Source of the DNA: Candidatus Poriferihabitaceae bacterium
GTDB lineage: Bacteria > Pseudomonadota > Gammaproteobacteria > Arenicellales > Poriferihabitantaceae
NCBI GenBank assembly: GCA_965221795.1
Contig: OZ244914.1
Location: forward strand, 303,180-367,179
Direction of reading: 5' to 3'
DNA length: 64,000 bases
Below the pieces are notes generated by a model, which saw only the letters and a list, made by a program, of their open reading frames with translations, was not told the origin of the DNA and did not search any database. Positions within the stretch are counted from its first letter, which is position 1. Each line of letters starts with the position of its first letter. The position numbers and the translations under genes are program-made. Below, piece after piece: positions 25,661-42,552 of this stretch.

Positions 25661-27447
25661 TCAGCGCGGCGGGAGCAGCGGGTGGAGGATGGCGTCGCCG
25701 GCGGCTTGGGGTTCGCGGGCGTAGTCGCGGTTCGCGGGCGGGAGGTATGGGAACTGGCCTGGGTGCCGGAAGATGGCGATCGCCAGGTGGGTGATCGCGG
25801 AGAGGTTGCGGGGCGTGTGCCCGGTCCGGACCCGACACCGATCCTCATCGTCGGTGAAGTCCTGGGCGGAATGCTGCCGGTTTTCCATGCTCCCGTGGTT
25901 GCGGACCAGGGCATTGAGGTCCCCGGCATCGGCCCGCTCCGCCGCCAGCGAAGTCAAGCCGTCGGCGCATTCCGCGGTGCGCTCCCCGATCCGGGTGTTG
26001 GTGCGCAGGTGCTGGATCCGGAAGGCCTGCCGACAGCCGGGAGACGGCAGCATCCGTCCCACTGCGGGCCGCTGACGTCGACCACGGTACCGTGCCGGGA
26101 CACTCGATCCGCCCATGCCCCTGGTCCAAGGTCTGGTGGACGTTTGCCGACGCTTCCCAGTCGATCGTCCGGAGGTCCTCCCGCAGGGTTTCCTGATGAT
26201 CCTGGACCGCGGTCATCCCATAGTCCGCCCCGCATGGCCCAGTCAGCAGCCGGGCCGTTTCGGTCTGGGTATGCAGGGTATGCAGGGGGACGATCCGGCC
26301 CCGCAGGTCGAGTTCCCCGAGCAGGGTCCGCACGGCCGTGATCTCGTGGGTGCCGTTCGCAACTCCCGTCTGCCCCGGGGCGATGCCGGTGCCATGCTCG
26401 AAGGTCGAGACCAGGATGAACCGGCGTTCTGCATTCTGCCGCGCGGCACCGCGGATGGTCTTGTCGTCCCGCGCCACCGGGGCCTGCTGGCCCTGTTCCC
26501 GCTGCCACCCGCGTTCTCGGTCGAGTCAGGCGGCATCGCCGACCGGAAGTAACGGAATGTCGACTCGGTGGGCACGGTATAGCGTCTCTTGCTCGGACGG
26601 CAGAAGCAGCCAATGGCCCGGCGCTGCTCCTGGTTGAGGGCGGCGGCAAACTCCGCGATCGCCGTGACCCCGCGGTCTCCGGCCCGGTGCGCCGCCACAG
26701 CCATCGTCAGGTCGTCCGCGATGGCATACCGCCGGCCGCGCGGCTGGCGGACATCCTCGGCACCGGCCAGATGCTCGTACCGACTCGACCGCCGCCGGAC
26801 ACTCGGTGGTTCCTGCCGGACGGGCGGCCGGCAAGGTGCCGGTCGTGGTCCAGCGCTCAGGATGCGGCCGGCATCCGGGGACCGTTCGTACCCGAAACCC
26901 TCCTTTGGTTGACCATGATATGGCCAGTCGGGCACCCCGCCCCGCACCCTGAAAAACCCCGAGGTGGAGCCCAGGTGCCGCCCGTTCGCGGCCCGGTAGC
27001 AGGTTCCGGAAAGCCGGGCTCCGTCCACGAAGGTCTCGGCCCGCAGCACCGGATCGCCATGCCGGTTCTGCAACTCCTGCGAGAGACGGCGCAGGCTCCG
27101 GCCCCGCACCGCGAGGCCCGGTTCGGCCGCAGCGCGGATGCGAGCACCAGGAGCCGGGCATGGTTGGCGATCCGATACAAGCGCTGCTGCCGCTGCGCAT
27201 CGGTCCAGCCGATCCAGCGGTCCCGGACGCCCACCCGGAACGCCCCCGCCGACCAGCCGATCCGCGCCAGCCACGACTCGCCGCAGACCGCGACATGGCG
27301 CAGGGCGCGATCGTAGAAGCACCGGAACGAGAGATCGTGCTGCGCCGCCATCAGCCGGTCCCAGCGCCGTTGCTCGTGCGTGTCGCGAACCGGCCGTACC
27401 CGAACCTCACTCAGATTCCAGTGATCCTCTTTCATGGCCGCGATCAT
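25661..27447 (-). mobile_element. high-GC DUF4338-ISAs1-family transposase gene, frameshifted (degraded IS)
   Basis: Three overlapping minus-strand ORFs in different frames together span one protein. ORF 26857..27447 has the DUF4338-type N-terminus (RDRWIGWTDAQRQQRLYRIANHARLLVL). ORF 26243..27322 has ETFVDGARLSGTCYRAANG plus a DDE_Tnp_1_assoc-like IAEFAAAL segment. ORFs 25845..26477 and 25661..26116 carry the ISAs1 DDE core (THEITAVRTLLGELDL...HGRIE and LVRNHGSMENRQHSAQDFTDDEDRCRVRTGHTPRN). GC is visibly much higher than in the flanks. Confidence 0.65.
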
Positions 27448-27612: not shown

Positions 27613-28302
27613 ATGATGGAAGTGCTCCACTTTGACACTCACCGCTTTGTCAAGAACCTGACCGAAAGCGGCTTTACCGAACTTCAGGCCGAAGCCCTGG
27701 CTGAGGCCCAGATCACGTTTCTCAACGAAAACCTGGCCACCAAGGCCAGCATTGACACCCTGCGCCTGGAAACCCAGGCCGATATCGCTCGACTGGAAGC
27801 CAGTGTCGAATCCCTGCGCCTGGAAACCAAGGCCGATATTGCTCGAGTGGAAGCCAGTGTCGAATCCCTGCGCCTGGAAACCAAGGCCGATATTGCTCGA
27901 GTGGAGGCCAGTGTCGAATCCCTGCGCCTGGAAACCAAGGCCGATATCGTTCGACTTGAGGGCGGCATTGAAACCCTGAGCCAGGAAACCAAGGCCGATA
28001 TCGCTCGAGTGGAAGCCAGTGTCGAATCCCTGCGCCAGGAAACCCAGGCCGATATCGCTCGAGTGGAGGCCAGTGTCGAATCCCTGCGCCAGGAAACCAA
28101 GGCCGATATCGCTCGAGTGGAGGCCAGTGTCGAATCCCTGCGCCAAGAAACCAAGGCCAGCATTGACACCCTGCGTCAGGAAACCCAGGCCAGTATTCTG
28201 TCGGCCAAGTACAGCCTCATGAAATGGATGACCGGAACGATGTTCGCCATGACCGGGCTGTTTGCCGCGATCGTCAAGCTGCTCCCTGGCATCGCTTCGT
28301 GA
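27613..28302 (+). CDS. DUF1640-like coiled-coil membrane-anchored protein with expanded internal repeats
   Basis: The N-terminus FDTHRFVKNLTESGFTELQAEALAEA is DUF1640-like. It is followed by repeated 18-aa units and a C-terminal TM segment (WMTGTMFAMTGLFAAIV). Confidence 0.6.
   Translation: MMEVLHFDTHRFVKNLTESGFTELQAEALAEAQITFLNENLATKASIDTLRLETQADIARLEASVESLRLETKADIARVEASVESLRLETKADIARVEASVESLRLETKADIVRLEGGIETLSQETKADIARVEASVESLRQETQADIARVEASVESLRQETKADIARVEASVESLRQETKASIDTLRQETQASILSAKYSLMKWMTGTMFAMTGLFAAIVKLLPGIAS
27751..28191 (+). repeat. tandem repeat, 54-bp period, about 8 copies, in frame within the DUF1640-like gene
   Basis: The unit gaaaccaaggccgatattgctcgagtggaagccagtgtcgaatccctgcgcctg (ETKADIARVEASVESLRL) recurs head-to-tail with few substitutions. 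Confidence 0.9.
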
Positions 28303-28587
28303 GCGTCATGTACATCGATTTCCTTCCCGGTGTCGAACCATGTTCTTGCATATGAGGTTCATCGCAGCTCCCCGCACGGACCAACCTCTACTGTCTGTGC
28401 CCACTCACTTCCCTGGGCGGTCGAAATGATGCTTGCCCAGACACGGGAAGGAATCAGCAATGAGTGCGGTCGACAGCAGGCCAATGGGTTGGGCAGTCTG
28501 TGCCCGGATGCGGGATGCCACAGCTCCATCCCCGGAGTAAAGTGAATTGGCGCACGTAGCCCGTGCATATCTTGAGAGACCGCTACC

Positions 28588-28809
28588 ATGCTCGGAACCC
28601 GGCTCACCAGCGAAAATATCGCCGCGCATATCCAAGAGGCGGGAGAGACCTGTCTCCTCATCGCGCCCGGGGTGGACGCGACCGTGGCCAAGGCGCTTCT
28701 GGAGCGTGCGCAACGCACGGCGAATAAGGCCAGGATCGTCATCGACGGCACGCACCACGCTGAGCGCAGCGGTTACGGCGAGACGGATACTTGGCGTGAG
28801 CTGATGTAA
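28588..28809 (+). CDS. hypothetical protein (possible fragment; a second short ORF at 28829 follows and runs into the CRISPR array)
   Basis: 73-aa ORF. No family recognised with confidence. Confidence 0.25.
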   Translation: MLGTRLTSENIAAHIQEAGETCLLIAPGVDATVAKALLERAQRTANKARIVIDGTHHAERSGYGETDTWRELM

Positions 28810-29025
28810 GGAGACGGAGCTCAGGAAGATGCCCTGCACCCGGCTTGGCCTGCTGGTGACCGATCGCGGTGCCTGGCTCTTTGCACCGCGTGCAGGTAAG
28901 CTTGATCCTCGTGGCGAGGCGGGGCTGAGTGCGGTAGAGCTTATGACGCACCGTGAGGCCGCTCTTGCTCTCTCCGAACGCATCTTGGGACAGCGTAAAC
29001 AACCTTTCCCTGCCTTGGTATTTCG

Positions 29026-32000
29026 GCTGCGGATTGCGGCCGTTTCTCGATTTGCTACACTCCCAAGTAAATTGACCGAACAACCCGCCTTGCTGCGGAT
29101 TGCGGCCGTTTCTCGATTTGCTACACTAGCACGATTACCGGCCTGCAATTGAGCTTGGCTGCGGATTGCGGCCGTTTCTCGATTTGCTACACTGCCGGAT
29201 CGATCGCACAGATTGATCATGGCGCTGCGGATTGCGGCCGTTTCTCGATTTGCTACACTTATGATACTCACCTAAATCGTCGCTAGGACGCTGCGGATTG
29301 CGGCCGTTTCTCGATTTGCTACACTCTGCGGGCAACGATAACCAGCGAAAGACGGGCTGCGGATTGCGGCCGTTTCTCGATTTGCTACACTCTTTGCCCG
29401 TGCCGATGCCGCCTTGATCCAGCTGCGGATTGCGGCCGTTTCTCGATTTGCTACACTGCGCTTGCGCAGGATACTCTTCGGAGCGGCGCTGCGGATTGCG
29501 GCCGTTTCTCGATTTGCTACACTTCCGAGCGATGCGCCAATTGAGACGCAAATGCTGCGGATTGCGGCCGTTTCTCGATTTGCTACACTTTGCCGCTTAG
29601 ACTGCCGGTACGCAATATCGCTGCGGATTGCGGCCGTTTCTCGATTTGCTACACTGTGGATACGTATTCGTTCTACGTCCCCATGGCTGCGGATTGCGGC
29701 CGTTTCTCGATTTGCTACACTGATACGCTGCATGATGTCATGTTCGCGACCGCTGCGGATTGCGGCCGTTTCTCGATTTGCTACACTTTTCTGCACCAGT
29801 TTGATCCTCGGAGCAGAGCTGCGGATTGCGGCCGTTTCTCGATTTGCTACACTCTCTCGCCAAGAGTCGCTACAATGGTCCACGCTGCGGATTGCGGCCG
29901 TTTCTCGATTTGCTACACTCGACCTCTGAAAGTTGACGCCTAGAAGTCGGCTGCGGATTGCGGCCGTTTCTCGATTTGCTACACTGCACAGAACTAGGTG
30001 GAATTGTGTCGACGAGCTGCGGATTGCGGCCGTTTCTCGATTTGCTACACTCTTCGGTTACATCACCTGATAACCCTCCTCGCTGCGGATTGCGGCCGTT
30101 TCTCGATTTGCTACACTCCCATTGATTGCGCTAGTCAGTTCAGAGGCGCTGCGGATTGCGGCCGTTTCTCGATTTGCTACACTGCGATCTAGGATGTCCT
30201 TAGTTATATACTTGCTGCGGATTGCGGCCGTTTCTCGATTTGCTACACTCGGTTTTACCGCGAATATGGCCGCTATCCCGCTGCGGATTGCGGCCGTTTC
30301 TCGATTTGCTACACTCGGTTTTACCGCGAATATGGCCGCTATCCCGCTGCGGATTGCGGCCGTTTCTCGATTTGCTACACTAAACTGGACAAAAAGCAAC
30401 CTCCGAAATCCGCTGCGGATTGCGGCCGTTTCTCGATTTGCTACACTCACGAACTGGAGACTGCGATTCGGGAGTCCGCTGCGGATTGCGGCCGTTTCTC
30501 GATTTGCTACACTTCTGGTTCTAACGAGGTCGATCAGGTCCCCGCTGCGGATTGCGGCCGTTTCTCGATTTGCTACACTTTCTTGCACCTCGATATATTT
30601 TGCTTCGCCGCTGCGGATTGCGGCCGTTTCTCGATTTGCTACACTAGATAATGACCTTATTACTTCACAGCTCAAGCTGCGGATTGCGGCCGTTTCTCGA
30701 TTTGCTACACTCGGCTTGCTCACGATTGGATAAAGACTCGTGCTGCGGATTGCGGCCGTTTCTCGATTTGCTACACTATGGGCTGCCGCTGTTGAGTACA
30801 TCCTGAAGCTGCGGATTGCGGCCGTTTCTCGATTTGCTACACTAATGTGCATGCCTCCACCGTACATGTGGATGCTGCGGATTGCGGCCGTTTCTCGATT
30901 TGCTACACTTCAGGCAAAAGCGAATCTCCAGCAGCGCATGCTGCGGATTGCGGCCGTTTCTCGATTTGCTACACTCTTACTGCGATTGAGTTGAGTTCGA
31001 GGAATGCTGCGGATTGCGGCCGTTTCTCGATTTGCTACACTCAACTCGGACAGGGTCAGATGGTCCTGACTGCTGCGGATTGCGGCCGTTTCTCGATTTG
31101 CTACACTAGTTCTGTGGCGCCAACCGAAAGGGAGATAGCTGCGGATTGCGGCCGTTTCTCGATTTGCTACACTTCTCGTCGGACACGACATGAGGAGGGT
31201 AACGCTGCGGATTGCGGCCGTTTCTCGATTTGCTACACTTTAGGCAGCACGACGCCAATCAAAGCAGACGCTGCGGATTGCGGCCGTTTCTCGATTTGCT
31301 ACACTGTCCGTACCAGTGTAGTCAATTCCTTCTTCGCTGCGGATTGCGGCCGTTTCTCGATTTGCTACACTTGAGGATTCTCATGTTATCGCTGTTCAAT
31401 AGCTGCGGATTGCGGCCGTTTCTCGATTTGCTACACTGAATACTAGAATACATCGCATCATAGTCGGGCTGCGGATTGCGGCCGTTTCTCGATTTGCTAC
31501 ACTACTACACCTTGAGGCTTGACCCTCGCGTCGGCTGCGGATTGCGGCCGTTTCTCGATTTGCTACACTTATCAACTGGTCTCCCTCACCACTCTTTCCG
31601 CTGCGGATTGCGGCCGTTTCTCGATTTGCTACACTGTGTGACGTGCGGAGATAAAGCCGACTGCAGCTGCGGATTGCGGCCGTTTCTCGATTTGCTACAC
31701 TAGCTCGGGCGGTGGGCATCGAGGGGCGACCGCTGCGGATTGCGGCCGTTTCTCGATTTGCTACACTATGAGTGTAAAGCTCGACAATTTCAGACATGCT
31801 GCGGATTGCGGCCGTTTCTCGATTTGCTACACTGTTAAGTAGCTCCGTCAAAGCGCCTTCGGCGCTGCGGATTGCGGCCGTTTCTCGATTTGCTACACTA
31901 TATGAGTATATATATATATATGAGTCCGAGCTGCGGATTGCGGCCGTTTCTCGATTTGCTACACTTTGCAGAACAGGAAGGTCTGCGGTTGGACTGCTGC

Positions 32001-32624
32001 GGATTGCGGCCGTTTCTCGATTTGCTACACTCTCGCGAAGCATGGGGATCCAACGTTCGAAGCTGCGGATTGCGGCCGTTTCTCGATTTGCTACACTTTT
32101 CGCCTCCTGTAGCGTCTTTATATCCTCGCTGCGGATTGCGGCCGTTTCTCGATTTGCTACACTGTGCTCCAGATTTGCCATGCTCCAAGACAGGCTGCGG
32201 ATTGCGGCCGTTTCTCGATTTGCTACACTCCCCCCTTAACGGAGCCCCGGACTCCCCGGGCTGCGGATTGCGGCCGTTTCTCGATTTGCTACACTAATGG
32301 GTTGACCGCGAAAGTCGACGTTGAAGCTGCGGATTGCGGCCGTTTCTCGATTTGCTACACTTTCCATCTGCTGCTTTCTTTCGATTGTCCTGCTGCGGAT
32401 TGCGGCCGTTTCTCGATTTGCTACACTGGACAAGGCGCAAGGACTTATTAGTGTCCAGCTGCGGATTGCGGCCGTTTCTCGATTTGCTACACTCTCCTGC
32501 ACTTCAATGTATTTCGCCTCTCCGCTGCGGATTGCGGCCGTTTCTCGATTTGCTACACTTTAAGTAGCTCCGTGAGAGCACCTTCCGCGCTGCGGATTGC
32601 GGCCGTTTCTCGATTTGCTACACT
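29026..32624 (+). CRISPR. CRISPR array, part 1: 55 copies of 36-bp repeat GCTGCGGATTGCGGCCGTTTCTCGATTTGCTACACT with 30-nt spacers (one of 29 nt)
   Basis: The period is 66 bp from 29026, and all inspected repeats are identical. The last repeat is 32589-32624. The + strand is the predicted crRNA sense (see the tracrRNA and promoter findings). Confidence 0.97.
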
Positions 32625-32671
32625 AAATAACAAAAGGGAATTATATCGAATAGTAACATTGGCCCTTTGAT

Positions 32672-32839
32672 CTAGGGCTTTTTGGACTTCTGAAAAAAGG
32701 CCCGTTGCAGCGTAGCCAGGTCCGCTCCGGGCATCTCATATTCCCGTTCCAGTTCCGCTTTGCTGGGCTGGTAGTGGACGTCAAAGGGATCAGGTGTGGG
32801 TCGGGTCTTTCTGTGTGATGTATTGGACCTTGTTTTCAT
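32672..32839 (-). CDS. small hypothetical protein (about 55 aa) inside the IS
   Basis: ORF 32672..32896. The internal ATG (MKTRSNTSH) is preceded by GAGGA. No family recognised. Confidence 0.25.
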   Translation of the reverse strand: MKTRSNTSHRKTRPTPDPFDVHYQPSKAELEREYEMPGADLATLQRAFFQKSKKP

Positions 32840-33024
32840 AGCAGATCCTCGGAAAGTCGGGGAATTATCTGTAATAATAACCCAACCACACAACAATACA
32901 GCACATTCATGACAGGTACAACGAAATCTGCTAGTCTGAAGAGAGGCAGACCGCAGACCGCAATTTAAGTGTCGGCCCGAACTGGGCTAACCAGACCATC
33001 TGGACAGGGGACAATCTCCCCATC

Positions 33025-34203
33025 ATGCGGGGGATGAATTCGGAGTCTGTGGACCTGATCTATCTGGATCCCCCGTTCAACTCCAAAGCCGATTATGCGG
33101 CTCCGATCGGCAGCCGGGCTGCCGGTGCCGAATTCAAGGATACCTGGACCTTGCAGGACGTGGATATCGCCTGGCTGGACCTGATCGAAAACAAACACCC
33201 GAAATGATGGCGGGTCATACAGGCTGCCATGACCAACAGCGATAAGTCCTATTTGATTTACATGGCAGTACGGTTGTTGGAAATGCAGCGGCTGCTGAAA
33301 CCAACAGGAAGCATTTATCTTCATTGTGATCCGACGATGAGCCACTATTTGAAACTGGTTATGGATGCCATCTTTGGACGGGAAAATTTCAAGAATGATA
33401 TTATTTGGAATCGCTCAGGAGGATTCAAACGGAAAACGGCTCGCCTTTTTCCCACCAAAAACGACAATATTCTCTTTTATGCACTGGACAGTAAAATCCA
33501 TACATTTTCTACCCAATACAGACCTCACAGGCCGGAATACATAAAGCGGTTTAAGGCCGACGCTTCTGGAAGGCTGTTTCGTTCTGATGTCAATCCAACT
33601 GGCGGCGGTCGCCGTACCATTTATCTGGATGAAACTTTAGGAGATATTGTCGACTCTGTTTGGATAGATATTCCTCCTGCAAATCCGGCGGCAAAAGAAC
33701 GTGTGGGTTATCCAACACAGAAACCGATTGCTTTGTTGCGACGCATCCTGAAAGCTTCCTGTCCCGAAAACGGGGTTGTGCTGGATCCTTTTTGTGGATG
33801 TGCTACCACGTGCGTTGCAGCGGAAGAATTAAGCAGGCAATGGGTGGGAATTGATATCAGTTCCAAAGCCTATGATCTGGTCAAGGATCGAATGGACCGG
33901 GAAATCGGCTTCTCTACCTATACTTGCCCCCATCGCACGGATATTCCCCAGAGAACGGATATCCAGCCATTAAAGCGGTATAACCACCCGGACAACCGGA
34001 AATACCTGTACGGCGAACAGGGAGGGATCTGTAACGGCTGCCGGGAACATTTTCTGATCCAGAATTTTACGGTAGATCACATCATTTCTCGCAAGCAAGG
34101 AGGGACCGATCATCTGGACAATCTGCAATTGCTCTGTGCCCGATGCAACTCGGTCAAGGGAGACCGAGGGCAGGAGTATCTTATAACAAGACTGGCTGCG
34201 TGA
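33025..34203 (+). pseudogene. beta-class N6A/N4C DNA methyltransferase fused to a C-terminal HNH nuclease domain, interrupted by an in-frame TGA
   Basis: Motif IV DLIYLDPPFNS lies upstream of motif I (VLDPFCGCATT). The HNH motif is CNGC...DHIISRKQGGTDHLDNLQLLCARCNSVKG. ORFs 33025..33207 and 33229..34203 are in the same frame and are separated by TGA at 33205-33207. Homology (ANQTIWTGDNLPIM) extends upstream of 33025 without a canonical start. Confidence 0.75.
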
Positions 34204-34211
34204 CCTGTCGA

Positions 34212-35156
34212 CTACGCCTGGATCAAATCCACATAACGCAACCGCTTCCCCTCCATTCGCCTGACCATCCAGTCCATCTGGTCCATGGTGTCCAGTTCGC
34301 GGTCATTGAACCGCCCGGAAAATTCATGGACATAACGGTTCAAGTGCTTCTCGCTCATATGGTGGTAAGTGCCATGGTAGCCCCGCTTCAGTAACGCCCA
34401 AAACGACTCAATGCCGTTGGTGTGGGCTTGGTCGTTCACCCACTCACTAACCGAATGTTTCACCGTTTCATGGGGATTCGGGAGCCCTTGGTAGCCCTTC
34501 CATTCGTCGCTGTAAATCGTGGTCGTGTATTCGGTGACCTCGCCCAGGAATTCGTGCAGGCAGGTTCTGCTGGCCGAAGGAATGACCTTGGCTTGGATGG
34601 TGTTGGTTTCCCGATCCTTGGCTCCGACCACCGTCGCTTTCCCCACGGCTCCCCGACCCGCATGTAGTTTCTTGTGGGCATGCTTGTTGATCTCCTTGCC
34701 GCCGATGTAAGTCTCATCTACTTCTACCGGCCCCGGGAACTGACCCGTTTCGGATTGGAAAACATCCCGGAGCCGATGCAGCATAAACCAGGCCGCTTTC
34801 TGTCCAATGCCCAATTCCCGGTGCAGTTTCATCGAACTGATGCCTTTCAGGTTCGTAGTGAACAGGTAAATGCCCACGGCCCAATGACGATACTTGATCT
34901 TGGAGCCTTCCATCACCGAGCCTTTCTTTACGCTGAACATCGGCTTGCCCTTACACTCCCGGCAACGATGGGTCATGGTGGGATGCGTAATATCACTTTG
35001 CACATTGTGGGTTCCACAATGAGGGCAGACCGGACCATCCGGCCACCGCCATTCCTCAATCCATTTGCGGGCGCTTTCCTCGGTGCCAAACATTTCCGCA
35101 ATTTCCAGAAGCGTTAATCCTTTCCTTTTGTACTTACCGGGTGCTGACTGGGCCAT
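34212..35156 (-). CDS. IS1595-family (ISXO2-like) DDE transposase
   Basis: 314 aa with an N-terminal zinc ribbon (CPHCG...CRECK) and a DDE_Tnp_IS1595-type core (VEVDETYIGGK...IYSDEWKGY...HTNGIESFWALLKRG). Confidence 0.9.
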   Translation of the reverse strand: MAQSAPGKYKRKGLTLLEIAEMFGTEESARKWIEEWRWPDGPVCPHCGTHNVQSDITHPTMTHRCRECKGKPMFSVKKGSVMEGSKIKYRHWAVGIYLFTTNLKGISSMKLHRELGIGQKAAWFMLHRLRDVFQSETGQFPGPVEVDETYIGGKEINKHAHKKLHAGRGAVGKATVVGAKDRETNTIQAKVIPSASRTCLHEFLGEVTEYTTTIYSDEWKGYQGLPNPHETVKHSVSEWVNDQAHTNGIESFWALLKRGYHGTYHHMSEKHLNRYVHEFSGRFNDRELDTMDQMDWMVRRMEGKRLRYVDLIQA

Positions 35157-35269
35157 GATTCTGTCTCGGTTACGATTTACTGAATAGTAACATTATGGTC
35201 AATTTGTGTCAACTGAAAATGTTACTTTTCGATATAATTCCCTAACAAAAAAATAATCGTATTGGGCGG

Positions 35270-36955
35270 GCTGCGGATTGCGGCCGTTTCTCGATTTGCT
35301 ACACTGACACGGAGAACTGTGTCACGCCAGTATTTGCTGCGGATTGCGGCCGTTTCTCGATTTGCTACACTTCCAGCGGGTGCGATGGCGCCAGCCAAAG
35401 GGCTGCGGATTGCGGCCGTTTCTCGATTTGCTACACTTCCATCAAGGATATCGAGAGCATCCATACGCTGCGGATTGCGGCCGTTTCTCGATTTGCTACA
35501 CTACGCTTACGAAGGATGCTCCGCGAAGCGGCGCTGCGGATTGCGGCCGTTTCTCGATTTGCTACACTCCCAAACAGTATCTGCCTTCTCAAGCCGAAGC
35601 TGCGGATTGCGGCCGTTTCTCGATTTGCTACACTACGCTTACGAAGGATGCTCCGCGAAGCGGCGCTGCGGATTGCGGCCGTTTCTCGATTTGCTACACT
35701 AGCTTGGCCCTTATTAGCCAGTGCCTGTAAGCTGCGGATTGCGGCCGTTTCTCGATTTGCTACACTTCCATACTAAGCGACTCCTAAAGAAGATAAGCTG
35801 CGGATTGCGGCCGTTTCTCGATTTGCTACACTGAGAAGGGCCATCCATGGCGGCCATCTCGCGGCTGCGGATTGCGGCCGTTTCTCGATTTGCTACACTG
35901 AAGTAAAATCTCGACAAATCATGAATTTGGCTGCGGATTGCGGCCGTTTCTCGATTTGCTACACTACCGCCGCCTAAGTACTCACGATTGGCAGAGCTGC
36001 GGATTGCGGCCGTTTCTCGATTTGCTACACTTTTTGAGGTGATTAGCCCGAACACCGTAAAGCTGCGGATTGCGGCCGTTTCTCGATTTGCTACACTAGT
36101 AATATGTGGACGGATTGTCTCGCCCGGGCTGCGGATTGCGGCCGTTTCTCGATTTGCTACACTCGCAAGCGTTTGTTTAAGTCTCGCGCAGACGCTGCGG
36201 ATTGCGGCCGTTTCTCGATTTGCTACACTCTCACGAAGCATGGGAATCCATCTCTCGAAGCTGCGGATTGCGGCCGTTTCTCGATTTGCTACACTAGCAG
36301 CCAAGGCGCCTTGCGTTTGCATAGAGCTGCGGATTGCGGCCGTTTCTCGATTTGCTACACTCACCTCGTGTTGCTCCTGCTGCTGTTTCATGCTGCGGAT
36401 TGCGGCCGTTTCTCGATTTGCTACACTACCAAAGAGTGTCCTGTGTCAAGAGAGACCGCTGCGGATTGCGGCCGTTTCTCGATTTGCTACACTCTCACGC
36501 AACATCGGAATCCAGCGCTCGAAGCTGCGGATTGCGGCCGTTTCTCGATTTGCTACACTCCGTCCTTAGTCGTGGCTAGACTCGCTCAGGCTGCGGATTG
36601 CGGCCGTTTCTCGATTTGCTACACTACAGGTTAGTCAACAAAACGCTCGTTCTGCGCTGCGGATTGCGGCCGTTTCTCGATTTGCTACACTCCATCAGGC
36701 GACTCCAAGTGAGGATAAAGGGCTGCGGATTGCGGCCGTTTCTCGATTTGCTACACTTTGCTCTGTAACGTGGGGTGAAAGCGCAGAGCTGCGGATTGCG
36801 GCCGTTTCTCGATTTGCTACACTTACCACCAAGGGCAGTGCCGATGCCGAGAAGCTGCGGATTGCGGCCGTTTCTCGATTTGCTACACTGGAATTCTGAC
36901 TGATCGCCCACGCCTCATCGCTGCGGATTGCGGCCGTTTCTCGATTTGCTACACT
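35270..36955 (+). CRISPR. CRISPR array, part 2: 26 copies of the same 36-bp repeat with 30-nt spacers
   Basis: The 66-bp period is exact from 35270 to the last repeat at 36920-36955. The repeat is identical to that of part 1. Confidence 0.97.
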
Positions 36956-37005
36956 TGCCCATGATGTAGGGCATTGAAAAAAAGCCGATTTTGCCCGCCC
37001 ACTGG

Positions 37006-37341
37006 TCAAAAAAGTTCCAGTTGGGCGGGCGGGTTCGGCAATGTCTGTCGTTTTTTTCCGACATGGATCTCTATCCGACCGAACTGTTTGTCGGTGATTG
37101 TCAGGAATCGGACTTCCCCTGCGAAAGGTACCCGGTGACCCATCCTTGCAGTGTGAACCTTGGCGTTTTCAATAGATGCGCAGTGCCGTATGTAAACGGA
37201 ATACTGCATCATCGTAAAACCGTCTTTTATTAGCTCTTTCCGAAATCTGGCATAGGCCTTACGGGCTGTTGGCGTGTCTGTGGGAAGGTCGAACATTGCA
37301 ATTACCCACATCGAACGCCAACCCCATGGGATTGCTTTCAC
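37006..37341 (-). CDS. cas2: CRISPR-associated endoribonuclease Cas2
   Basis: 111 aa with a Cas2-type translation (IAMFDLPTDTPTARKAYARFRKELIKDGFTMMQYSVYIRHC). It lies directly downstream of cas1. Confidence 0.9.
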   Translation of the reverse strand: MKAIPWGWRSMWVIAMFDLPTDTPTARKAYARFRKELIKDGFTMMQYSVYIRHCASIENAKVHTARMGHRVPFAGEVRFLTITDKQFGRIEIHVGKKRQTLPNPPAQLELF

Positions 37342-37367
37342 CCTTTCTGCCTTCGTCAGAGGATATA

Positions 37368-38303
37368 TCAGCCTGCGTCTGTGATATCAGACTGCCCGGG
37401 TTCCACCGGCAGACCCTCGGGTAAGGAAAGCTTCTGTTCTCCGCCAGTCAGAACTTGGCAAAGGGAAACCGCACTGGTATGCAAGGCTAGCAGCAATGGT
37501 TCCTTACGGCCTCCAACAAGAATGGTTTCGTTGAGTAATGCGAGGAGTTCAGCGCGATTTTTCCGTATCGATAGATCGGGTACTGGCTCGCCTTCATCCT
37601 CTGTCAACTGCCGGACACGCCAGTCAACGTATGGCCGATACGGCTCCAACAGATCGTCCGCCAGACAGAAAGGGTTGCTCCGGTGGCGGTGATGTACACC
37701 CAGAGATGGGATCAGTCCCACTGCGACCACGGCCCGGGCGATTGCAGCACGAACAACAGCATAGCCGTAATTCAGTAGTGCATTCACGCCTCCAGCACTC
37801 CGGTCCCGACGGAAATCCTTGCCGAACAGGCGAGGCCAGTATCTCTGTGCAGCCTGTGCCTCAAGATTTTCCGGATCGCCAGAACGTACTCGGCGAGCCA
37901 TGGCGGTGAGGCCTCCATGACTATCGGTGAAATGCGACAGTACGGCAGCCTGCTGCCTGATCTTGGCTTGTACGATCTCCTGCCATGCACGTTTTGAGGT
38001 CGGCTTACTGGCACCGACCTGCGCACGATGCCGTTCCGTCTGAATATGATGCGCATCAAGAGGCAACATCATTCCGACGGGTAAATGGTCGTGGCCGGTG
38101 ACCAGCACGGTTGCACCGGCCTCCAAAAGCGAAAGAAAGACAGACTGCGTGTAGGTCGCCTGGATGTCGTCGACAATCACTACACCCAAGTCTTCGATCG
38201 GGAGCGTCGCCTTTGGCAGGTCGAGCCGCTCGATCACAAGCTGTGAATTCGCAACGGAAAGGCGAGTTCCGGGAGTTGAGAATTCCACGGTCTTGCGGAT
38301 CAT
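37368..38303 (-). CDS. cas1: CRISPR-associated endonuclease Cas1 (type II)
   Basis: 311 aa with a Cas1-type translation (NALLNYGYAVVRAAIARAVVAVGLIPSLGVHHRHRSNPFCLADDLLEPYRP). Confidence 0.92.
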   Translation of the reverse strand: MIRKTVEFSTPGTRLSVANSQLVIERLDLPKATLPIEDLGVVIVDDIQATYTQSVFLSLLEAGATVLVTGHDHLPVGMMLPLDAHHIQTERHRAQVGASKPTSKRAWQEIVQAKIRQQAAVLSHFTDSHGGLTAMARRVRSGDPENLEAQAAQRYWPRLFGKDFRRDRSAGGVNALLNYGYAVVRAAIARAVVAVGLIPSLGVHHRHRSNPFCLADDLLEPYRPYVDWRVRQLTEDEGEPVPDLSIRKNRAELLALLNETILVGGRKEPLLLALHTSAVSLCQVLTGGEQKLSLPEGLPVEPGQSDITDAG

Positions 38304-38315
38304 GATGGTATGGTT

Positions 38316-41300
38316 TCAGTCGTTTGCCGGACGGACCCGGCCAGCTGGGTCGACGGAAACCTTCCTTCCGCCGCCTTTGACGATTGCAGTTGCTTTAGGA
38401 CGAAACTCGGAAGTTCCGGTCGCATCATCATGATCAACCATAACAACTTGGCCCGATGTCCAGACACCTTTGACAATTCGAATTTTCTCTTCACCATTCT
38501 TGGCAAATTGCAACGAATCACCGGGAGATAACGACATGACAAATTTCGCACCATCTCCACGGTCACGGCAAACTACCGGTTGCCGTCGTCCAATACGTCG
38601 GGAGGCTTCCAGCAAGCTCACCACCTCATAATCGACGGTGTTATCCGGCAAACTATAGATGGCGATATGGTGGTTGTTGCCCAAGTCGGCATGACCCGTA
38701 GAAACGGATGCCATCAGATCCATTTGCCGTTTAATACGCAGGCGAACCTTCCGGATTTCCGGACCCTTTCGACCTCGCTTCGGATAGGGTGGGAAAGCCT
38801 TCTTCGGCTCTCCACCGTGCTGGTCAACCCAGCCTTTGATGATATCCCGTACCTTTTGGTCGGGCCACAGGTCCCTGTTCTTTTCCTGCAGGGTGTCCTT
38901 GCTCAGCTCCTCGACATTCTTGCGTGTTACGAAATATCGGTAAGTTGGCCGGCCCTTGGAAGCATCGTCCTCACCTGTATTGCCGTAAACTGTCTCTTTA
39001 TGCAGGGGGCCGGAAACCTTTTTTCGTACGCGATGGGATACAACAATGGTCATGACTTCCTTTTCGGCATCGCGTCGAATCGTCCCCCACGGTAGTTCAA
39101 GGCGTGGGGCTATGGAGTGGAAGTTATCCTCGTCCTGCCAGTAGCGTGAGAGTTGCTGGGTCATCCTAGGGTGACAGCACGCGACCGTCAGGGCATCAAT
39201 TGCGTGGTGCCGGTGGTCAGCACGGTTTTTTTCACCATTATCAGCCAGTATGTTGCTGAGTCCCCATAACCGGCGGAGATGTGCGGTGACCCGTCCCGAA
39301 ACAGCATGAACCTTGACAGAGGACTCTGGACCAACGTCTGGCCAAAGTTTCTTCAGATAGGTAACAGCCTCACGGGCCGCATAGCCTGTGTCGTTCAACT
39401 GTCGAGCGGCAAAATCTTCCGGAATGGACATCGCCAGGAATCTCCTGATCTTGCCATGGGACATACCAATCCCCCCACTTTTCGGTGCCTTCATTCCATA
39501 GAGTCTGGTAACCAGAGCCTCCCATCCTGCGGAATCGTCGCGAAAGAATTCATATGGAATCCGATTGCTCTTTTGGAGGTTCACATCCTTGCGGCATAGA
39601 GTCTTGTTCTTGAAACTATCATCAAGGGAGCGCGAGCGCGGCCAGATATGCTCCACTTCGAATTTTCCGGATTTGAACAAATCATCAAATGAAATGGAAT
39701 CTCCTGTGTACGGACAGAAATATCGACTCTCTTCCCACAGCATCCACTTCTCAACATCTGCCCGAGAAGGCGTAGGAATACCTTTTTCCTGAAGCTTCTC
39801 GCGTGCTGCCTTCCGGCGACGTTCCTGCCGCTTGATTCCAGCTGCCCTTTCCTCACGTTGACGTTTCGAATTACCCACATCACGCGCCATCTCGACGCGA
39901 ATCAGGTCTGGCTTTCCGAACATGTCGATCAGATTGTTAACTACCTTCCGCAGTTCATTGCGAGTGCGTGCTACCGTAGGGTTCCGCAGCTTCTTGACAT
40001 GCTCACACTCTTCCCGGTCTGCGGGACTGGGAAGGCGATCAAACACCTCGCCGGTAGGTTGCTCACGACCCGGGAAAGTGTCGGTTCGCCATGGTTCCCA
40101 GGCGGGACCGTTGATGATTTCACCAAATCGGACGCCAGCTTCAAGATGCGGCAGCATCGCCTGCAGCGCATCAATGGAATAGGGCTCCCACCCGGGTGAG
40201 AATTTCAGGATCTCGATTGCAGATGCCTGATCATCGGATAGATCAAATTCCGCGGCCAAACGGCGTACGGTTTCCGACCTGCGGGACTGACGCTCGGATG
40301 CAGGGAGAATAGTCACGCGCTGGCCGCCGACTTCATCGTAGTCCGCCTGCCTGATCCTGTCCGGCAGTGCATCCCTGATTTCCTGTTTGCATGGATGATC
40401 TTGCCAAGCATCCCCGAAGATTCCCGCCAGCTTTGATTCAATAGCATTGCCGAGCAGATTTCTCTCGCCGCCCTCTTCCAGATTGAATTTCAGTGCTCTC
40501 TCCTCACCAGCTTGACCACGCGCCCTGTATAGAGGTGCAAGCGCTCTCTGAACGCCTTTCCACGTCATTGATGCTTGGGTTTGAAGTCTTGCAAGTATGG
40601 CCGCTCTCTCTTCTTCATCCAGATGCCGCTGGTTTCTGCCGGTGATCGAGAGATTGTTGAGCTTTTCCAGCATACGCCTTTGCTGTGACAGCCAGGACCC
40701 CTTCGGGCAGAGACGCGCATCGGGGACAAATGGACATGTGCCAAGGGTGTTCAATCGCCAGAAAACGGGGCGCTGGAAGAAGATCGCATCCCGGATGGAA
40801 GAGCAGAATGATTCCGGCAGAAGCGGTGACCAAACGGAATCGAATTCATGCGCGACGATGTAACGTGTGGCATGTTCGCCTCTCTTGCGTTCATGCGAAC
40901 CACGCCCGGCCAGCCAGGCACCAAGGGTCTTTTCTTCACGCTTGATTTCCTTGATTGTTTTTTCGCGTGCAGAAGAGGCCTTCTTATCGTCATCACCGTC
41001 ATCAGAGGACTCGGCTCCATCCACAATCTCGTCGAGATCACGACCCTTGAAATGTCGACGCTGTGCTAGATGGTAGATGGCCCGGCCAATTTCATGCGGA
41101 GACAGGGGATACCCCTCAAATCCTCGCCTCCGCAGATCATAGGGATCCCACTTCATCACTTCGTTCCATTCCGTGGACCCTCGTTGCGGAAGGAATCCGG
41201 CCTGGAACAGTTGTTCACCGAGAATACGGCGACGCTCCCGGCGGCGGCGCAATTGACGTCGCCGCAGGCGTGCCTGCCGTCGTTCCTGATTTAATGGAAC

Positions 41301-41438
41301 ACCCCTAGGGTCCCGGGCTTCGGGAAAAATGCGGACACCAAGGCGATGGATTTTTCCTGTAGCTCTCTTCGGGTCGTGTTCTATTACGGCAAATCCGATT
41401 GATGTCGTTCCGATATCGAATCCGAAAGTCAGTGGCAT
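38316..41438 (-). CDS. cas9: type II-C Cas9 (about 1,040 aa)
   Basis: It has RuvC-I FGFDIGTTSIGFAV, an Arg-rich bridge helix RQARLRRRQLRRRRERRRIL, RuvC-II IRVEMARD, HNH FEVEHIWPRS...NKTLC...NLQKSNRIPYEF and RuvC-III DHRHHAIDAL. No csn2 or cas4 is present, hence II-C. The start is set at MPLTFGF (41438). The ORF-track extension to 41534 covers the predicted tracrRNA anti-repeat and is rejected. Confidence 0.93.
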   Translation of the reverse strand: MPLTFGFDIGTTSIGFAVIEHDPKRATGKIHRLGVRIFPEARDPRGVPLNQERRQARLRRRQLRRRRERRRILGEQLFQAGFLPQRGSTEWNEVMKWDPYDLRRRGFEGYPLSPHEIGRAIYHLAQRRHFKGRDLDEIVDGAESSDDGDDDKKASSAREKTIKEIKREEKTLGAWLAGRGSHERKRGEHATRYIVAHEFDSVWSPLLPESFCSSIRDAIFFQRPVFWRLNTLGTCPFVPDARLCPKGSWLSQQRRMLEKLNNLSITGRNQRHLDEEERAAILARLQTQASMTWKGVQRALAPLYRARGQAGEERALKFNLEEGGERNLLGNAIESKLAGIFGDAWQDHPCKQEIRDALPDRIRQADYDEVGGQRVTILPASERQSRRSETVRRLAAEFDLSDDQASAIEILKFSPGWEPYSIDALQAMLPHLEAGVRFGEIINGPAWEPWRTDTFPGREQPTGEVFDRLPSPADREECEHVKKLRNPTVARTRNELRKVVNNLIDMFGKPDLIRVEMARDVGNSKRQREERAAGIKRQERRRKAAREKLQEKGIPTPSRADVEKWMLWEESRYFCPYTGDSISFDDLFKSGKFEVEHIWPRSRSLDDSFKNKTLCRKDVNLQKSNRIPYEFFRDDSAGWEALVTRLYGMKAPKSGGIGMSHGKIRRFLAMSIPEDFAARQLNDTGYAAREAVTYLKKLWPDVGPESSVKVHAVSGRVTAHLRRLWGLSNILADNGEKNRADHRHHAIDALTVACCHPRMTQQLSRYWQDEDNFHSIAPRLELPWGTIRRDAEKEVMTIVVSHRVRKKVSGPLHKETVYGNTGEDDASKGRPTYRYFVTRKNVEELSKDTLQEKNRDLWPDQKVRDIIKGWVDQHGGEPKKAFPPYPKRGRKGPEIRKVRLRIKRQMDLMASVSTGHADLGNNHHIAIYSLPDNTVDYEVVSLLEASRRIGRRQPVVCRDRGDGAKFVMSLSPGDSLQFAKNGEEKIRIVKGVWTSGQVVMVDHDDATGTSEFRPKATAIVKGGGRKVSVDPAGRVRPAND

Positions 41439-41458
41439 GCGTGATCTTCTGTTTCTTG

Positions 41459-41486
41459 TTGCTTTATACGAATCATATGCTAATAT
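41459..41486 (+). promoter_or_regulatory. sigma70-type promoter for the predicted tracrRNA
   Basis: The promoter is TTGCTT (41459-41464), a 16-nt spacer and TAATAT (41481-41486), with an extended -10 TG at 41478-41479 (TGCTAATAT). Confidence 0.5.
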
Positions 41487-41493
41487 CGTTTCC

Positions 41494-41620
41494 ATAGCAA
41501 ATCGAGAAGCGGTCGATTTCCTTTTCGCAAGCAAATTGACCCTTTGTGCGGGCTCGGTGTCCCAAGGTCATCCACCGGTTTTCTAAAGCCGCCGTTTCCA
41601 TTCGGAGGCTTTATTGCTTG
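41494..41620 (+). ncRNA. predicted tracrRNA (divergent from cas9)
   Basis: The anti-repeat at 41495-41532 (TAGCAAATCGAGAAGCGGTCGATTTCCTTTTCGCAAGC) is complementary to the +-strand repeat: 21 consecutive pairs including 2 G:U, then a bulged continuation to repeat position 1. Downstream lie hairpins CGGTG-13 nt-CACCG followed by GTTTTCT, and AAAGCCGCCG-8 nt-CGGAGGCTTT followed by ATT. The ends are approximate. Confidence 0.6.
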
Positions 41621-41799
41621 TGTGCTGGAAATCAGTTTGCAAGCTGAATGGTTACTGATTGGCAAGCGGTGTGTACACCACAGGACTTCGGCTGGCGTCT
41701 GGTGTAAGAATGCCAGAGTGACCGCGCATCGGTTTCCGGGGCCGGATTACCCAGCGATGGCTTCGGACGCAGTCTTGAGATAGCCGGGGGCAGGCCGGA

Positions 41800-42285
41800 T
41801 TACCCTGCCATTTTCCTGTGGCCGGTCCGGCGTCCCCGGCACCGAGGATAGTTCACGCACCCAAGAAACGGGCCGTACTTGCCTGTCCGCTCGACCAGCC
41901 AGCCGTCGGGGCATGCCGGGCAGGACCGAAAGGTCGCCCCGCAGGCGCATTTGCTGGTGTCCGACACGGCTTCGTTTCGGAGCGGCAGTCCGGCACCGCA
42001 GGCCGCGCACACGGGCAGGCTCGCGCCGCAATGATGCCTATGCTCGCAGGCATACCGGAATCTGCCGTCCGGCACCAGATGCCCTTCACATCTTGGACAG
42101 CGATACCGGCGACGCCTGTTCTGCCCCGTTTTCATCATGTCTGTCATTTCCGCTACCTCATACTCCCCGTCCTCCAGCAGTTCGTTCACGAAGTCCGACG
42201 GCTGATCCGGCCTGGCGATGATCGTGACCGACCTGCGCACCCGGATGTTCGACCCTGGAAGAAGGCGTAACAAGACGACATTCAC
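41800..42285 (-). pseudogene. 3' remnant of a helicase-type gene with Cys-rich zinc ribbons and a topoisomerase-type C4 zinc finger
   Basis: The N-terminus VRRSVTIIARPDQPSDFVNELL resembles the extreme C-terminus of UvrD-like helicase cores. It is followed by CPRC/CxxC clusters and GKYGPFLGCVNYPRC (zf-C4_Topoisom-like). No helicase body lies upstream. Confidence 0.4.
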
Positions 42286-42552
42286 TTTCTTTGCTTCCGC
42301 TCAATAAACTACAACAAAGTTGTCAGCTTCCAGAAACCCGAATGGAGATAAAGGGTAGCGATGCGGGACAAGGATGAGGGCCGCAGCAGGTTGGTTGGCG
42401 AGAAATAAATACCTGGAGCCCGACATCCGGTTGAAGTCGCCACTACGACGGGGCTGCATCCATTGGGAAGAATCGAATAAAATTCCACCTCCGCTGGTCG
42501 ACGGAACACCGTACCAGTGTACTTTCCAAGAGACCACAATTCTTTTCCGACA

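Follow-up and report, generated by a model that had tools for sequence, protein, structure and literature searches.

A CRISPR array whose repeats are all identical but whose regular spacing breaks down at a single place raises the questions of what the intervening DNA is, how it came to lie there and what it did to the array. In the stretch analysed here (the window: 64,000 nt of contig OZ244914.1 from a Candidatus Poriferihabitaceae bacterium), the 36-nt repeat GCTGCGGATTGCGGCCGTTTCTCGATTTGCTACACT occurs 81 times with no mismatch between 29026 and 36955, separated by spacers of 30 nt (76 cases), 29 nt (two) or 31 nt (one) and by one interval of 2,645 nt (32625-35269), which contains a 2,607-bp element at 32636-35242 (Table 1). 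With a probability of about 0.92, we consider this element to be an active, multi-copy transporter IS (tIS) of the IS1595 family that inserted in an A/T-rich spacer and carries dead cargo.

Table 1. Coordinates of the interrupted array, the inserted element and the neighbouring CRISPR-Cas genes (window numbering).
Feature	Position	Strand	Details
CRISPR array, cas-distal block	29026..32624	+	55 identical 36-nt repeats, 54 spacers
Split spacer, 5' 11 nt	32625..32635	+	last 8 nt (32628-32635, TAACAAAA) are the left duplication copy
Left terminal inverted repeat (IRL)	32636..32660	+	GGGAATTATATCGAATAGTAACATT
Hairpin and five-T run directly inside IRL	32661..32683	+	fold
Small ORF, divergent from methylase gene	32672..32839	-	55 aa (at most 74 aa with TTG start)
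Internal IRL-like sequence	32860..32884	+	GGGAATTATCTGTAATAATAACCCA, 49 bp upstream of methylase ATG
Beta-class N6/N4 DNA methyltransferase-HNH nuclease fusion, pseudogene	32909..34203	+	
IS1595-family transposase, 314 aa	34212..35156	-	zinc ribbon (C44, C47, C65, C68) and DDE domain (D147, D217, E250-x6-K257)
Sigma-70-like promoter	35184..35212	-	TTGACA, 17 nt, TG-n-TACTAT (10/12 matches); points inward to transposase gene
Right terminal inverted repeat (IRR)	35218..35242	-	
Right duplication copy (35243-35250) and split spacer, 3' 19 nt	35243..35269	+	
CRISPR array, cas-proximal block	35270..36955	+	26 identical repeats, 25 spacers
cas2	37006..37341	-	NCBIfam TIGR01573
cas1	37368..38303	-	PF01867
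cas9, type II-C	38316..41438	-	1040 aa from ATG at 41438; TIGR01865, 576.6 bits
Putative tracrRNA	41494..41615	+	anti-repeat (TAGCAAATCGAGAAGCGGTCGATTTCC, ~41494-41530), then terminator hairpin

The left end of the element and the reverse complement of its right end are identical at 24 of 25 positions, with the likeness ending at 25 nt, and this end sequence was found in the window at these two places only (0.00 occurrences expected from 100 shuffles). Both ends are bordered by the 8-bp target-site duplication TAACAAAA, and joining 32625-32635 to 35251-35269 yields AAATAACAAAAAAATAATCGTATTGGGCGG, a 30-nt spacer between perfect repeats. An earlier reading made from the letters alone (the sequence-only reading) had proposed these coordinates, inverted ends, duplication and 30-nt reconstruction, all of which proved exact on recheck. 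The empty CRISPR site is nonetheless a reconstruction rather than a direct observation: the uninterrupted spacer, for which that reading had recommended a search, did not surface, with an exact 30-nt query for the spacer or a protospacer giving no matches in JGI metagenomes or IMG/VR. A close strain (L014; Cas9 99% identical, same repeat) shares none of its 29 spacers with the window and therefore cannot reveal the empty site.

Four further copies of the element (at loci L001-L004), 2606/2607 identical, were identified in the same metagenome assembly, so that there are at least five in all. Their ends are identical to those of the window copy, and each has a duplication of its own (TAACTTTA, TTTTCTTT, AAAAGAAA and TATTATAG), so that an 8-bp duplication is present in all five copies. 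The sequence-only reading, which had called this duplication a hallmark of IS1595-family transposition and had named copies with other ends or without it as its refutation, thus withstands its own test. These four copies occupy unrelated, non-CRISPR sites, namely A/T-rich DNA between genes, a DAO gene and a further IS; at L003, precise excision turns a 330-aa truncation back into a 411-aa DAO-family ORF. The presence of two repeat blocks is all that would recommend viewing the locus as two independent arrays flanking unrelated DNA that merely resembles an IS, and the chance of this is negligible, given that the repeats are identical on both sides, the half-spacers sum to 30 nt and the intervening DNA is a discrete unit with the same boundaries elsewhere. 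We regard it as refuted by the 30-nt reconstruction, the same-ended copies and the ORF restored at L003.

An assembly artefact, with a multi-copy repeat misplaced in the array or two arrays fused through a collapsed IS, could be imagined where a single metagenome assembly contains the element at least five times in near-identical form, but we judge it very improbable. A perfect 8-bp duplication combined with spacer halves that sum to exactly 30 nt between perfect repeats is not a product of assembler error. Moreover, the window copy carries a private substitution (33680 C) that specifies Ala in place of the Val encoded by the other copies and by the intact homologues P0122 and P0124. Cluster data place the Ala-variant protein on a single contig, 3.64 Mb long, of this assembly, and the contig names suggest ~75x long-read coverage.

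Relatives at L009/L010 (transposase 72% identical) and L012/L013 (39%) likewise have GGGAATTAT tips and A/T-rich 8-bp duplications; these 9 nt, with which IRL begins, are invariant in all aligned ends of the clade. All eight duplications across the clade are A/T-rich (seven scored together, the eighth being CAAATATG), and six of the seven scored have at most one G/C, whereas such 8-mers account for 1.07% of those in the window. Measured over 16-mers and over 20-mers, the insertion site shares the lowest G+C in the array, and the hit spacer ranks among its two most A/T-rich stretches. The site can thus be explained by a preference of the element for A/T-rich targets, as the sequence-only reading had surmised, and the insertion is ordinary transposition into a preferred site. 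The analogous ISApl4 of Actinobacillus pleuropneumoniae (IS1595 family, IS1016 subgroup) is also multi-copy and generates 8-bp direct repeats that are preferentially A/T-rich, but is only 712 bp long, with 14-bp ends (GGGGCTGTACTAGA) and no passenger genes (PMC12561309). A scan of GTDB genomes with the end sequence retrieved only elements in two alphaproteobacterial MAGs, with an identical 25-bp end and transposases 56-64% identical; the same scan of JGI metagenomes gave no matches.

That the element instead targets CRISPR arrays on purpose, as an anti-immunity or safe-harbour strategy comparable to that of Tn7-like transposons or array-integrating phages, is suggested by its position within a spacer with both flanking repeats intact, which is the geometry of the array-targeting Tn7-like elements of cyanobacteria (PMC11837452). 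Those, however, are array-specific and recognise the repeat via dedicated targeting proteins (PMC11837452), whereas the present element has a single IS1595 transposase, with no TnsABC, TniQ or guide-RNA components, and shows an A/T-rich preference only. Four of its five copies lie outside arrays in unrelated sites that have A/T richness as their sole common feature, and no spacer matches the element. Purposeful targeting is accordingly highly unlikely, with nothing in the element to suggest it. Rather, the element entered the spacer for its A/T richness, not by seeking CRISPR DNA, which illustrates that long CRISPR arrays collect such insertions simply where a spacer is A/T-rich.

The transposase passed the IS1595 models of both Pfam (PF12762 DDE_Tnp_IS1595, 130.5 bits with a cut-off of 27; PF12760 Zn_ribbon_IS1595, 46.4 bits) and NCBIfam (NF033547 transpos_IS1595, 179.9 bits with a cut-off of 75), which bears out its initial description as IS1595-like. 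The DDE-domain residues listed in Table 1 are invariant in 12 relatives, as are the four zinc-ribbon cysteines in the alignment with relatives; no solved structure matched the transposase. Its best match in a set of 72,556 annotated plasmids shows 42% identity; in metagenomes, the nearest relatives beyond its own cluster show 73%. The element therefore combines the DDE domain, zinc ribbon, bounding inverted repeats, 8-bp duplication and signs of mobility that define the IS1595 family. Within that family, ISfinder recognises an ISNwi1 subgroup with passenger genes (ISNwi1+), to which the element probably belongs: 2.6 kb falls inside the ISNwi1+ size range of ~1.75-4.75 kb, the GGGAATTAT tips would fit the subgroup consensus 'ggnnatTAT', and the D, D, E-x6-K arrangement would correspond to its DDEK motif.

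Between IRL and IRR, the element also holds the methyltransferase-HNH pseudogene and the small ORF, both unrelated to transposition, which makes it a tIS, a type of element known in the IS1595 and IS66 families (bioRxiv 10.1101/2021.05.26.445724). It shares with the IS1595-family tIS a zinc-ribbon and DDE(K) transposase, short inverted ends, an 8-bp duplication and internal passenger genes, but is a new, previously unnamed member, whose passenger is a methyltransferase-HNH fusion and is dead. With its ends and A/T-rich preference defined by five copies, eight clade duplications and one restored gene, it provides a clean, fully bounded tIS. Its transposase would be expressed from the promoter just inside the right end, an arrangement also seen at the transposase-proximal ends of relatives, would recognise the 25-bp inverted ends and would insert the element in A/T-rich DNA by an 8-bp staggered cut, repair of which would leave the 8-bp duplication.

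Several smaller features lie towards the left end. The hairpin and five-T run directly inside IRL (32661-32683), which a terminator scan did not flag, looks like a terminator for transcripts entering from the array. The internal IRL-like sequence (32860-32884) is probably a relic left end. The small ORF had no family match in Pfam, NCBIfam, PADLOC or PHROGs, and a related element in L004 has an ORF in an equivalent position. Rfam models gave no matches in 28000-42500.

The sequence-only reading had the element delivering a defence or epigenetic module by way of a methyltransferase-HNH gene and a small ORF. Both genes do lie inside the element, but the former is not intact and the delivery of a working module does not hold, its frame being broken by a 1-nt deletion (32937/32938) and an in-frame TGA (33205-33207), each identical in all five copies. 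What is left are ORFs of 60 aa (33025-33207) and 324 aa (33229-34203), and the TGA severs catalytic motif IV (DPPF) from the rest of the protein, such that no unbroken frame combines DPPF with the SAM-binding motif. The domains are still recognisable (PF01555, 146 bits; PF01844, 53 bits; PADLOC MTase_II), and the element contains no restriction partner gene. We conclude that the methyltransferase-HNH gene had already been inactivated before the element multiplied in this genome; tIS passenger genes can thus be dead weight and still be copied.

Were the cargo functional after all, whether by recoding (a frameshift combined with read-through of the TGA) or in the form of two fragments that interact, the element would deliver an epigenetic or nuclease module. 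Lesions aside, the gene keeps all residues that are invariant in intact homologues, including DPPF, FCGCAT and the HNH cysteines, the same 'lesions' occur in all five copies, and the 324-aa ORF has its own ATG and an intact HNH domain. We nevertheless find this improbable, as there is no slippery heptamer at the deletion and no SECIS-like evidence, the gene's own stop codon is TGA, the position of the premature stop is Leu or Val in intact homologues, and the 324-aa product lacks motif IV and so cannot methylate. Furthermore, five copies with one base different in 2,607 are too young for more decay, which makes intactness elsewhere in the cargo uninformative. Independently of its state in this dead cargo, the methyltransferase-HNH fusion rides intact in two related IS1595 elements and is found in a Mu-like prophage as well; an intact paralogue lies at L004:913-2334. 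A literature search on such fusions returned nothing specific, and we see in them a more promising subject than the insertion itself.

The CRISPR-Cas system that received the insertion has intact cas9, cas1 and cas2 genes, no csn2 or cas4 and an empty gap between cas2 and the array. This gene set, also carried by L014 and L015, and the putative tracrRNA with its anti-repeat identify it as type II-C. No Rfam model matched the tracrRNA region, which is conserved in L015; the terminator stem there has another sequence but, by eye, can still pair. All repeats end in TGCTACACT, which has the appearance of an extended -10 box and may be promoter-like; the repeats of a relative with a 75% identical Cas9 end in TGCTACAGT. 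The counterpart at the Neisseria repeat end is TGCTACAAT. Not every II-C system has a repeat-embedded promoter, which is characteristic of the Neisseria/Campylobacter subgroup. In the II-C systems of Neisseria meningitidis and Campylobacter jejuni, promoters are located within the repeats (PMC5965381), and the present locus has in common with these the cas9-cas1-cas2 gene set, 36-nt repeats ending in an extended -10-like box, 30-nt spacers and crRNAs that would be read towards the cas genes, here on the + strand; its Cas9 is only distantly related to theirs, and its repeat promoters are predicted.

Because each repeat carries its own promoter-like box, the insertion would silence at most the split crRNA, the other 79 being transcribed independently. 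Judging from the repeat sequence, then, probably only this one crRNA is affected, and the damage to immunity implied by the sequence-only reading appears overstated. A precedent is provided by Flavobacterium psychrophilum CN46 (PMC10309648), where an IS256 element with target duplications lies inside a II-C array that has promoter elements in its repeats and is transcribed, according to RNA-seq, on both sides of the split. CN46 differs from the present case in IS family and host phylum, and its repeat promoter is of the Bacteroidetes type; its evidence is RNA-seq, that presented here sequence. Similarly, IS6110 splits one ancestral array in two at the direct-repeat (CRISPR) locus of the Mycobacterium tuberculosis complex, and that array is likewise rebuilt by deleting the IS and one duplication copy (PMC7820667). 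Unlike our element, however, IS6110 is an IS3-family member that duplicates 3 bp and lands in a repeat, not a spacer. Its locus is a type III-A array with a leader-driven transcript and is known as an IS6110 hot spot in which secondary deletions occur (PMC7820667).

The literature thus already contains IS1595 elements with cargo as well as CRISPR arrays split by an IS, one of them a II-C array with transcription on either side, and the element leaves the current understanding of CRISPR or transposition unchanged. For annotation, two "arrays" around an IS should be joined into one and the spacer concealed between them restored. As to self-targeting, the spacers share with the element and with the other loci retrieved nothing more than 11-14-mers expected by chance.

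The split spacer itself may, though we think it rather unlikely, have stayed alive. Since 8 bp of it were duplicated, a run of 27 of the original 30 nt (35243-35269) remains contiguous with the downstream repeat and covers the whole of the ~24-nt guide portion that characterised II-C systems use. On the + strand, facing outward, IRR presents a TATAAT at 35233-35238, 4 nt from the tip, which might replace the displaced promoter: the start predicted from this box lies at about spacer nt 6, compared with about nt 7 from the repeat-borne -10 box, and a crRNA with a ~25-nt guide would still be made. If the TATAAT box does fire, the GGGAATTAT ends, which are invariant across the clade, would be portable outward promoters.

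The 2,645-nt interval at 32625–35269 is a spacer of a type II-C CRISPR array split by a new IS1595-family transporter IS, the cargo of which is dead. The array comprises 81 copies of the repeat GCTGCGGATTGCGGCCGTTTCTCGATTTGCTACACT with zero mismatches (29026–36955 of the window), separated, but for this odd interval, by spacers of 30 nt (76), 29 nt (two) or 31 nt (one). Positions 32636–32660 and the reverse complement of 35218–35242 are identical at 24 of 25 nt, with no similarity past 25 nt, and TAACAAAA occurs on either flank of the element (32628–32635 and 35243–35250). Removal of the element and one TAACAAAA copy yields the spacer AAATAACAAAAAAATAATCGTATTGGGCGG, precisely 30 nt long, so that coordinates and sequence bear out exactly the ends, duplication and reconstruction described in the sequence-only reading. 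Besides these two, no element-end sequences were found in the window, and chance alone would produce none.

The transposase ORF scored 180 bits with the NCBIfam model transpos_IS1595 (cut-off 75), and alignment with relatives as distant as 39% identity shows no change at D147, D217, E250 and K257 (E-x6-K) or at four cysteines of the zinc ribbon. A predicted sigma-70-type promoter (TTGACA, 17 nt, TG-n-TACTAT) lies just inside the right end, facing this gene. An exact-protein look-up located the same transposase at four additional sites in one metagenome assembly (ENA ERZ25070844); a 5-kb contig bears one of them and contigs of ~1 Mb, with coverage near 78x, the other three. All four copies measure 2,607 bp, differ from the window copy solely at base 33680 and end in the same 25-bp sequences, with private 8-bp duplications (TAACTTTA, TTTTCTTT, AAAAGAAA and TATTATAG). 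In one of them (L003) the element interrupts a DAO-family gene, and once it is excised along with one duplication copy, the ORF, truncated at 330 aa, becomes continuous over 411 aa. With family models matched and these ends and duplications recurring in four other copies, the insertion of an IS1595-family element into a CRISPR spacer, as first proposed from the sequence, is real. Since the window's variant of the 324-aa cargo ORF (Ala, not Val) also appears in cluster records, on a contig of 3.64 Mb with the same origin, the genome holds at least five near-identical copies, which indicates recent activity of the element.

Coding features of the element and the CRISPR-Cas locus (window positions)
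Feature	Positions	Strand	Remarks
Small ORF, 55 aa	32672–32839	minus	No family match; between left end and transposase gene
Transposase ORF, 314 aa	34212–35156	minus	Pfam DDE_Tnp_IS1595 and Zn_ribbon_IS1595
cas2	37006–37341	minus	Adjoins array
cas1	37368–38303	minus	Array side of cas9
cas9	38316–41438	minus	With cas1 and cas2 beside array

Related elements (L009 and L010, transposase 72% identical) are flanked by duplications AAAAATAG and CAATTTTG, a more distant one (L012/L013, 39%) by CAAATATG, and GGGAATTAT starts every end examined in the element and its relatives. Members of the ISNwi1 subgroup have ggnnatTAT at their ends, share a DDEK motif and 8-bp repeats, and range from 1.75 to 4.75 kb when they carry passengers; the present element appears to fit in each respect and probably belongs there. 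The element itself is new, its transposase being 42% identical to the best match among annotated plasmids and 73% identical to its nearest metagenomic relatives beyond the cluster to which it belongs. Passenger-carrying IS-like elements are called transporter IS and, according to a passage in bioRxiv 10.1101/2021.05.26.445724 that cites Siguier et al. (2009), have been described in the IS1595 and IS66 families. Insertions in CRISPR arrays are well documented for IS elements, as with IS6110 in M. tuberculosis (PMC7820667) and IS256 in F. psychrophilum (PMC10309648), and Tn7-like elements insert into spacers (PMC11837452).

Several further observations concern the element ends. A left-end-like internal sequence, GGGAATTATCTGTAATAATAACCCA (32860–32884), begins with the 9-mer invariant at the ends of this clade and is placed 49 bp ahead of the methylase ATG; the methylase gene of the distant relative at L013 has its element's true left end 55 bp ahead of it. 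The internal sequence looks like a relic left end, in which case the 224-bp left arm, small ORF included, may have been added later. The identical 25-bp end is also found on elements with transposases only 56–64% identical (L005 6372–6396, L006 2495–2519, L007 7788–7812), hosted by MAGs labelled Rhodobacter sp. and Rhizobiaceae (plasmid), so that end conservation far exceeds protein conservation; the L005 transposase has an apparent frameshift. At L008 (4915–8678; same metagenome), a 3.8-kb element with a 95% identical transposase, degenerate ends and no clear duplication carries different cargo (346-aa, 101-aa and 158-aa methylase-fragment ORFs).

The cargo, situated like the small ORF on the left-end side of the transposase gene, is a beta-class N6/N4 DNA methyltransferase–HNH nuclease fusion (PF01555, 146 bits; PF01844, 53 bits), with MboIIA, RsrI, CcrM and EcoP15I Mod as nearest solved relatives. 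Such fusions are very common (>8,000 homologues), with an intact length of 400–480 aa. Relative to the intact 473-aa paralogue at the copy locus L004 (913–2334), one G is absent at 32937/32938, shifting the frame after codon 10, and codon 104 of the reconstructed protein is a TGA (33205–33207) in place of the Leu or Val of intact homologues. The DPPF catalytic motif is thereby stranded on a 60-aa ORF and the SAM-binding motif, HNH domain and remainder on a 324-aa ORF. Because both lesions occur in all five element copies, the element multiplied after the death of its passenger, and the suggestion that a defence or epigenetic module had been delivered is not supported.

Intact methyltransferase–HNH proteins are a recurrent passenger of IS1595 elements (L004, L012/L013). 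At L004 (1–5119) the element copy is nested in another IS1595 element, a relative with a 64% identical transposase, which carries the 473-aa protein; compared with the window's, its central target-recognition region is unrelated and its flanks are ~85–90% identical, the specificity domain apparently having been swapped. At L013 (1988–2517), the 3,620-bp distant transporter IS flanked by CAAATATG carries a HicAB toxin–antitoxin pair as well as the intact gene. The closest intact cargo homologue (L011 4001–5233), which is 73% identical and has the same specificity region, belongs not to an IS but to a Mu-like prophage, where it adjoins a Mu-type transposase, a ParB-like protein and an S24 repressor.

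How the element came to lie in a spacer is most simply explained by its choice of target. Among seven duplications scored together, six contain at most one G/C and the seventh two, as does the eighth (CAAATATG), and 8-mers with at most one G/C make up 1.07% of the window (55% G+C). In the array, 62 of ~5,300 8-mer positions are of this kind, 15 of them within the hit spacer, and the insertion site ties for the lowest-G+C 16-mer and 20-mer in the entire array. A preference for A/T-rich 8-bp targets has been described for another IS1595-family element (PMC12561309). Given this preference, the location of the other copies outside CRISPR DNA, the lack of any array spacer matching the element and of any targeting machinery gene among its ORFs and domains, a chance hit in an A/T-rich spacer is the simplest account.

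Domain and family searches found neither csn2 nor cas4 at the CRISPR locus, and a cas9–cas1–cas2 set lacking both corresponds to type II-C. Upstream of cas9, the plus strand carries an anti-repeat and, after it, a terminator hairpin; crRNAs are thus probably read on that strand, in the direction of the cas genes. Anti-repeat and hairpin are both kept in a relative (L015) with a 75% identical Cas9, where the stem sequence differs but, read by eye, could still pair. On the plus strand an extended −10 box, TGCTACACT, ends each repeat (TGCTACAGT in that relative), and promoters of this kind within the repeats give rise to the II-C crRNAs of N. meningitidis and C. jejuni (PMC5965381). Both parts of a II-C array are transcribed in F. 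psychrophilum CN46, where IS256 has split it; II-C arrays, according to the same paper, are read towards their variable end (PMC10309648). A low-coverage strain from the same metagenome (L014, ctg4284_2x_l) has an identical repeat and a Cas9 99% identical but split by a frameshift; none of its 29 cas-proximal spacers recurs in the window, in keeping with a variable cas-proximal end.

The insertion would then cost at most one of 80 crRNAs, and its effect on immunity is probably minor. A transcript from the repeat at 32589–32624 would enter the left end, where folding predicts a hairpin with a run of five U after it (32661–32683). The duplication keeps 27 of the 30 spacer nt joined to the next repeat, and TATAAT faces outward at both element tips, 4 nt from the end (35233–35238, right; 32641–32646, minus strand, left); read outward, the left end also forms an extended −10 box, TGTTACTAT. 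The ends are thus possible outward promoters, the right one directed into the retained spacer and the left one antisense to the array. From the right tip a transcript would start at about spacer nt 6, and the split-spacer crRNA might in this way survive, an outcome we consider unlikely.

Elsewhere in the array, two pairs of spacers are identical, one adjacent (30250–30345) and one separated by a single unit (35503–35532 and 35635–35664), and several others (32032, 36230, 36494; 31834, 32560) have diverged from a common sequence, such as ctcgcgaagcatggggatccaacgttcgaa, ctcacgaagcatgggaatccatctctcgaa and ctcacgcaacatcggaatccagcgctcgaa, which suggests that variants of one target served repeatedly as spacer sources. 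Close to the array on its upstream side, a gene for a CCDC90-like coiled-coil protein (27613–28302) contains 7.4 tandem copies of a 54-bp unit (91% matches; 27758–28158). G+C reaches ~70% at 26001–27000 and 62001–63000, against the window mean, and a lower-G+C region (48–51%), 4 kb from the array, holds a predicted AAA-ATPase–PD-(D/E)XK nuclease fusion (PF09820 and PF08011; 23536–25194, minus strand).
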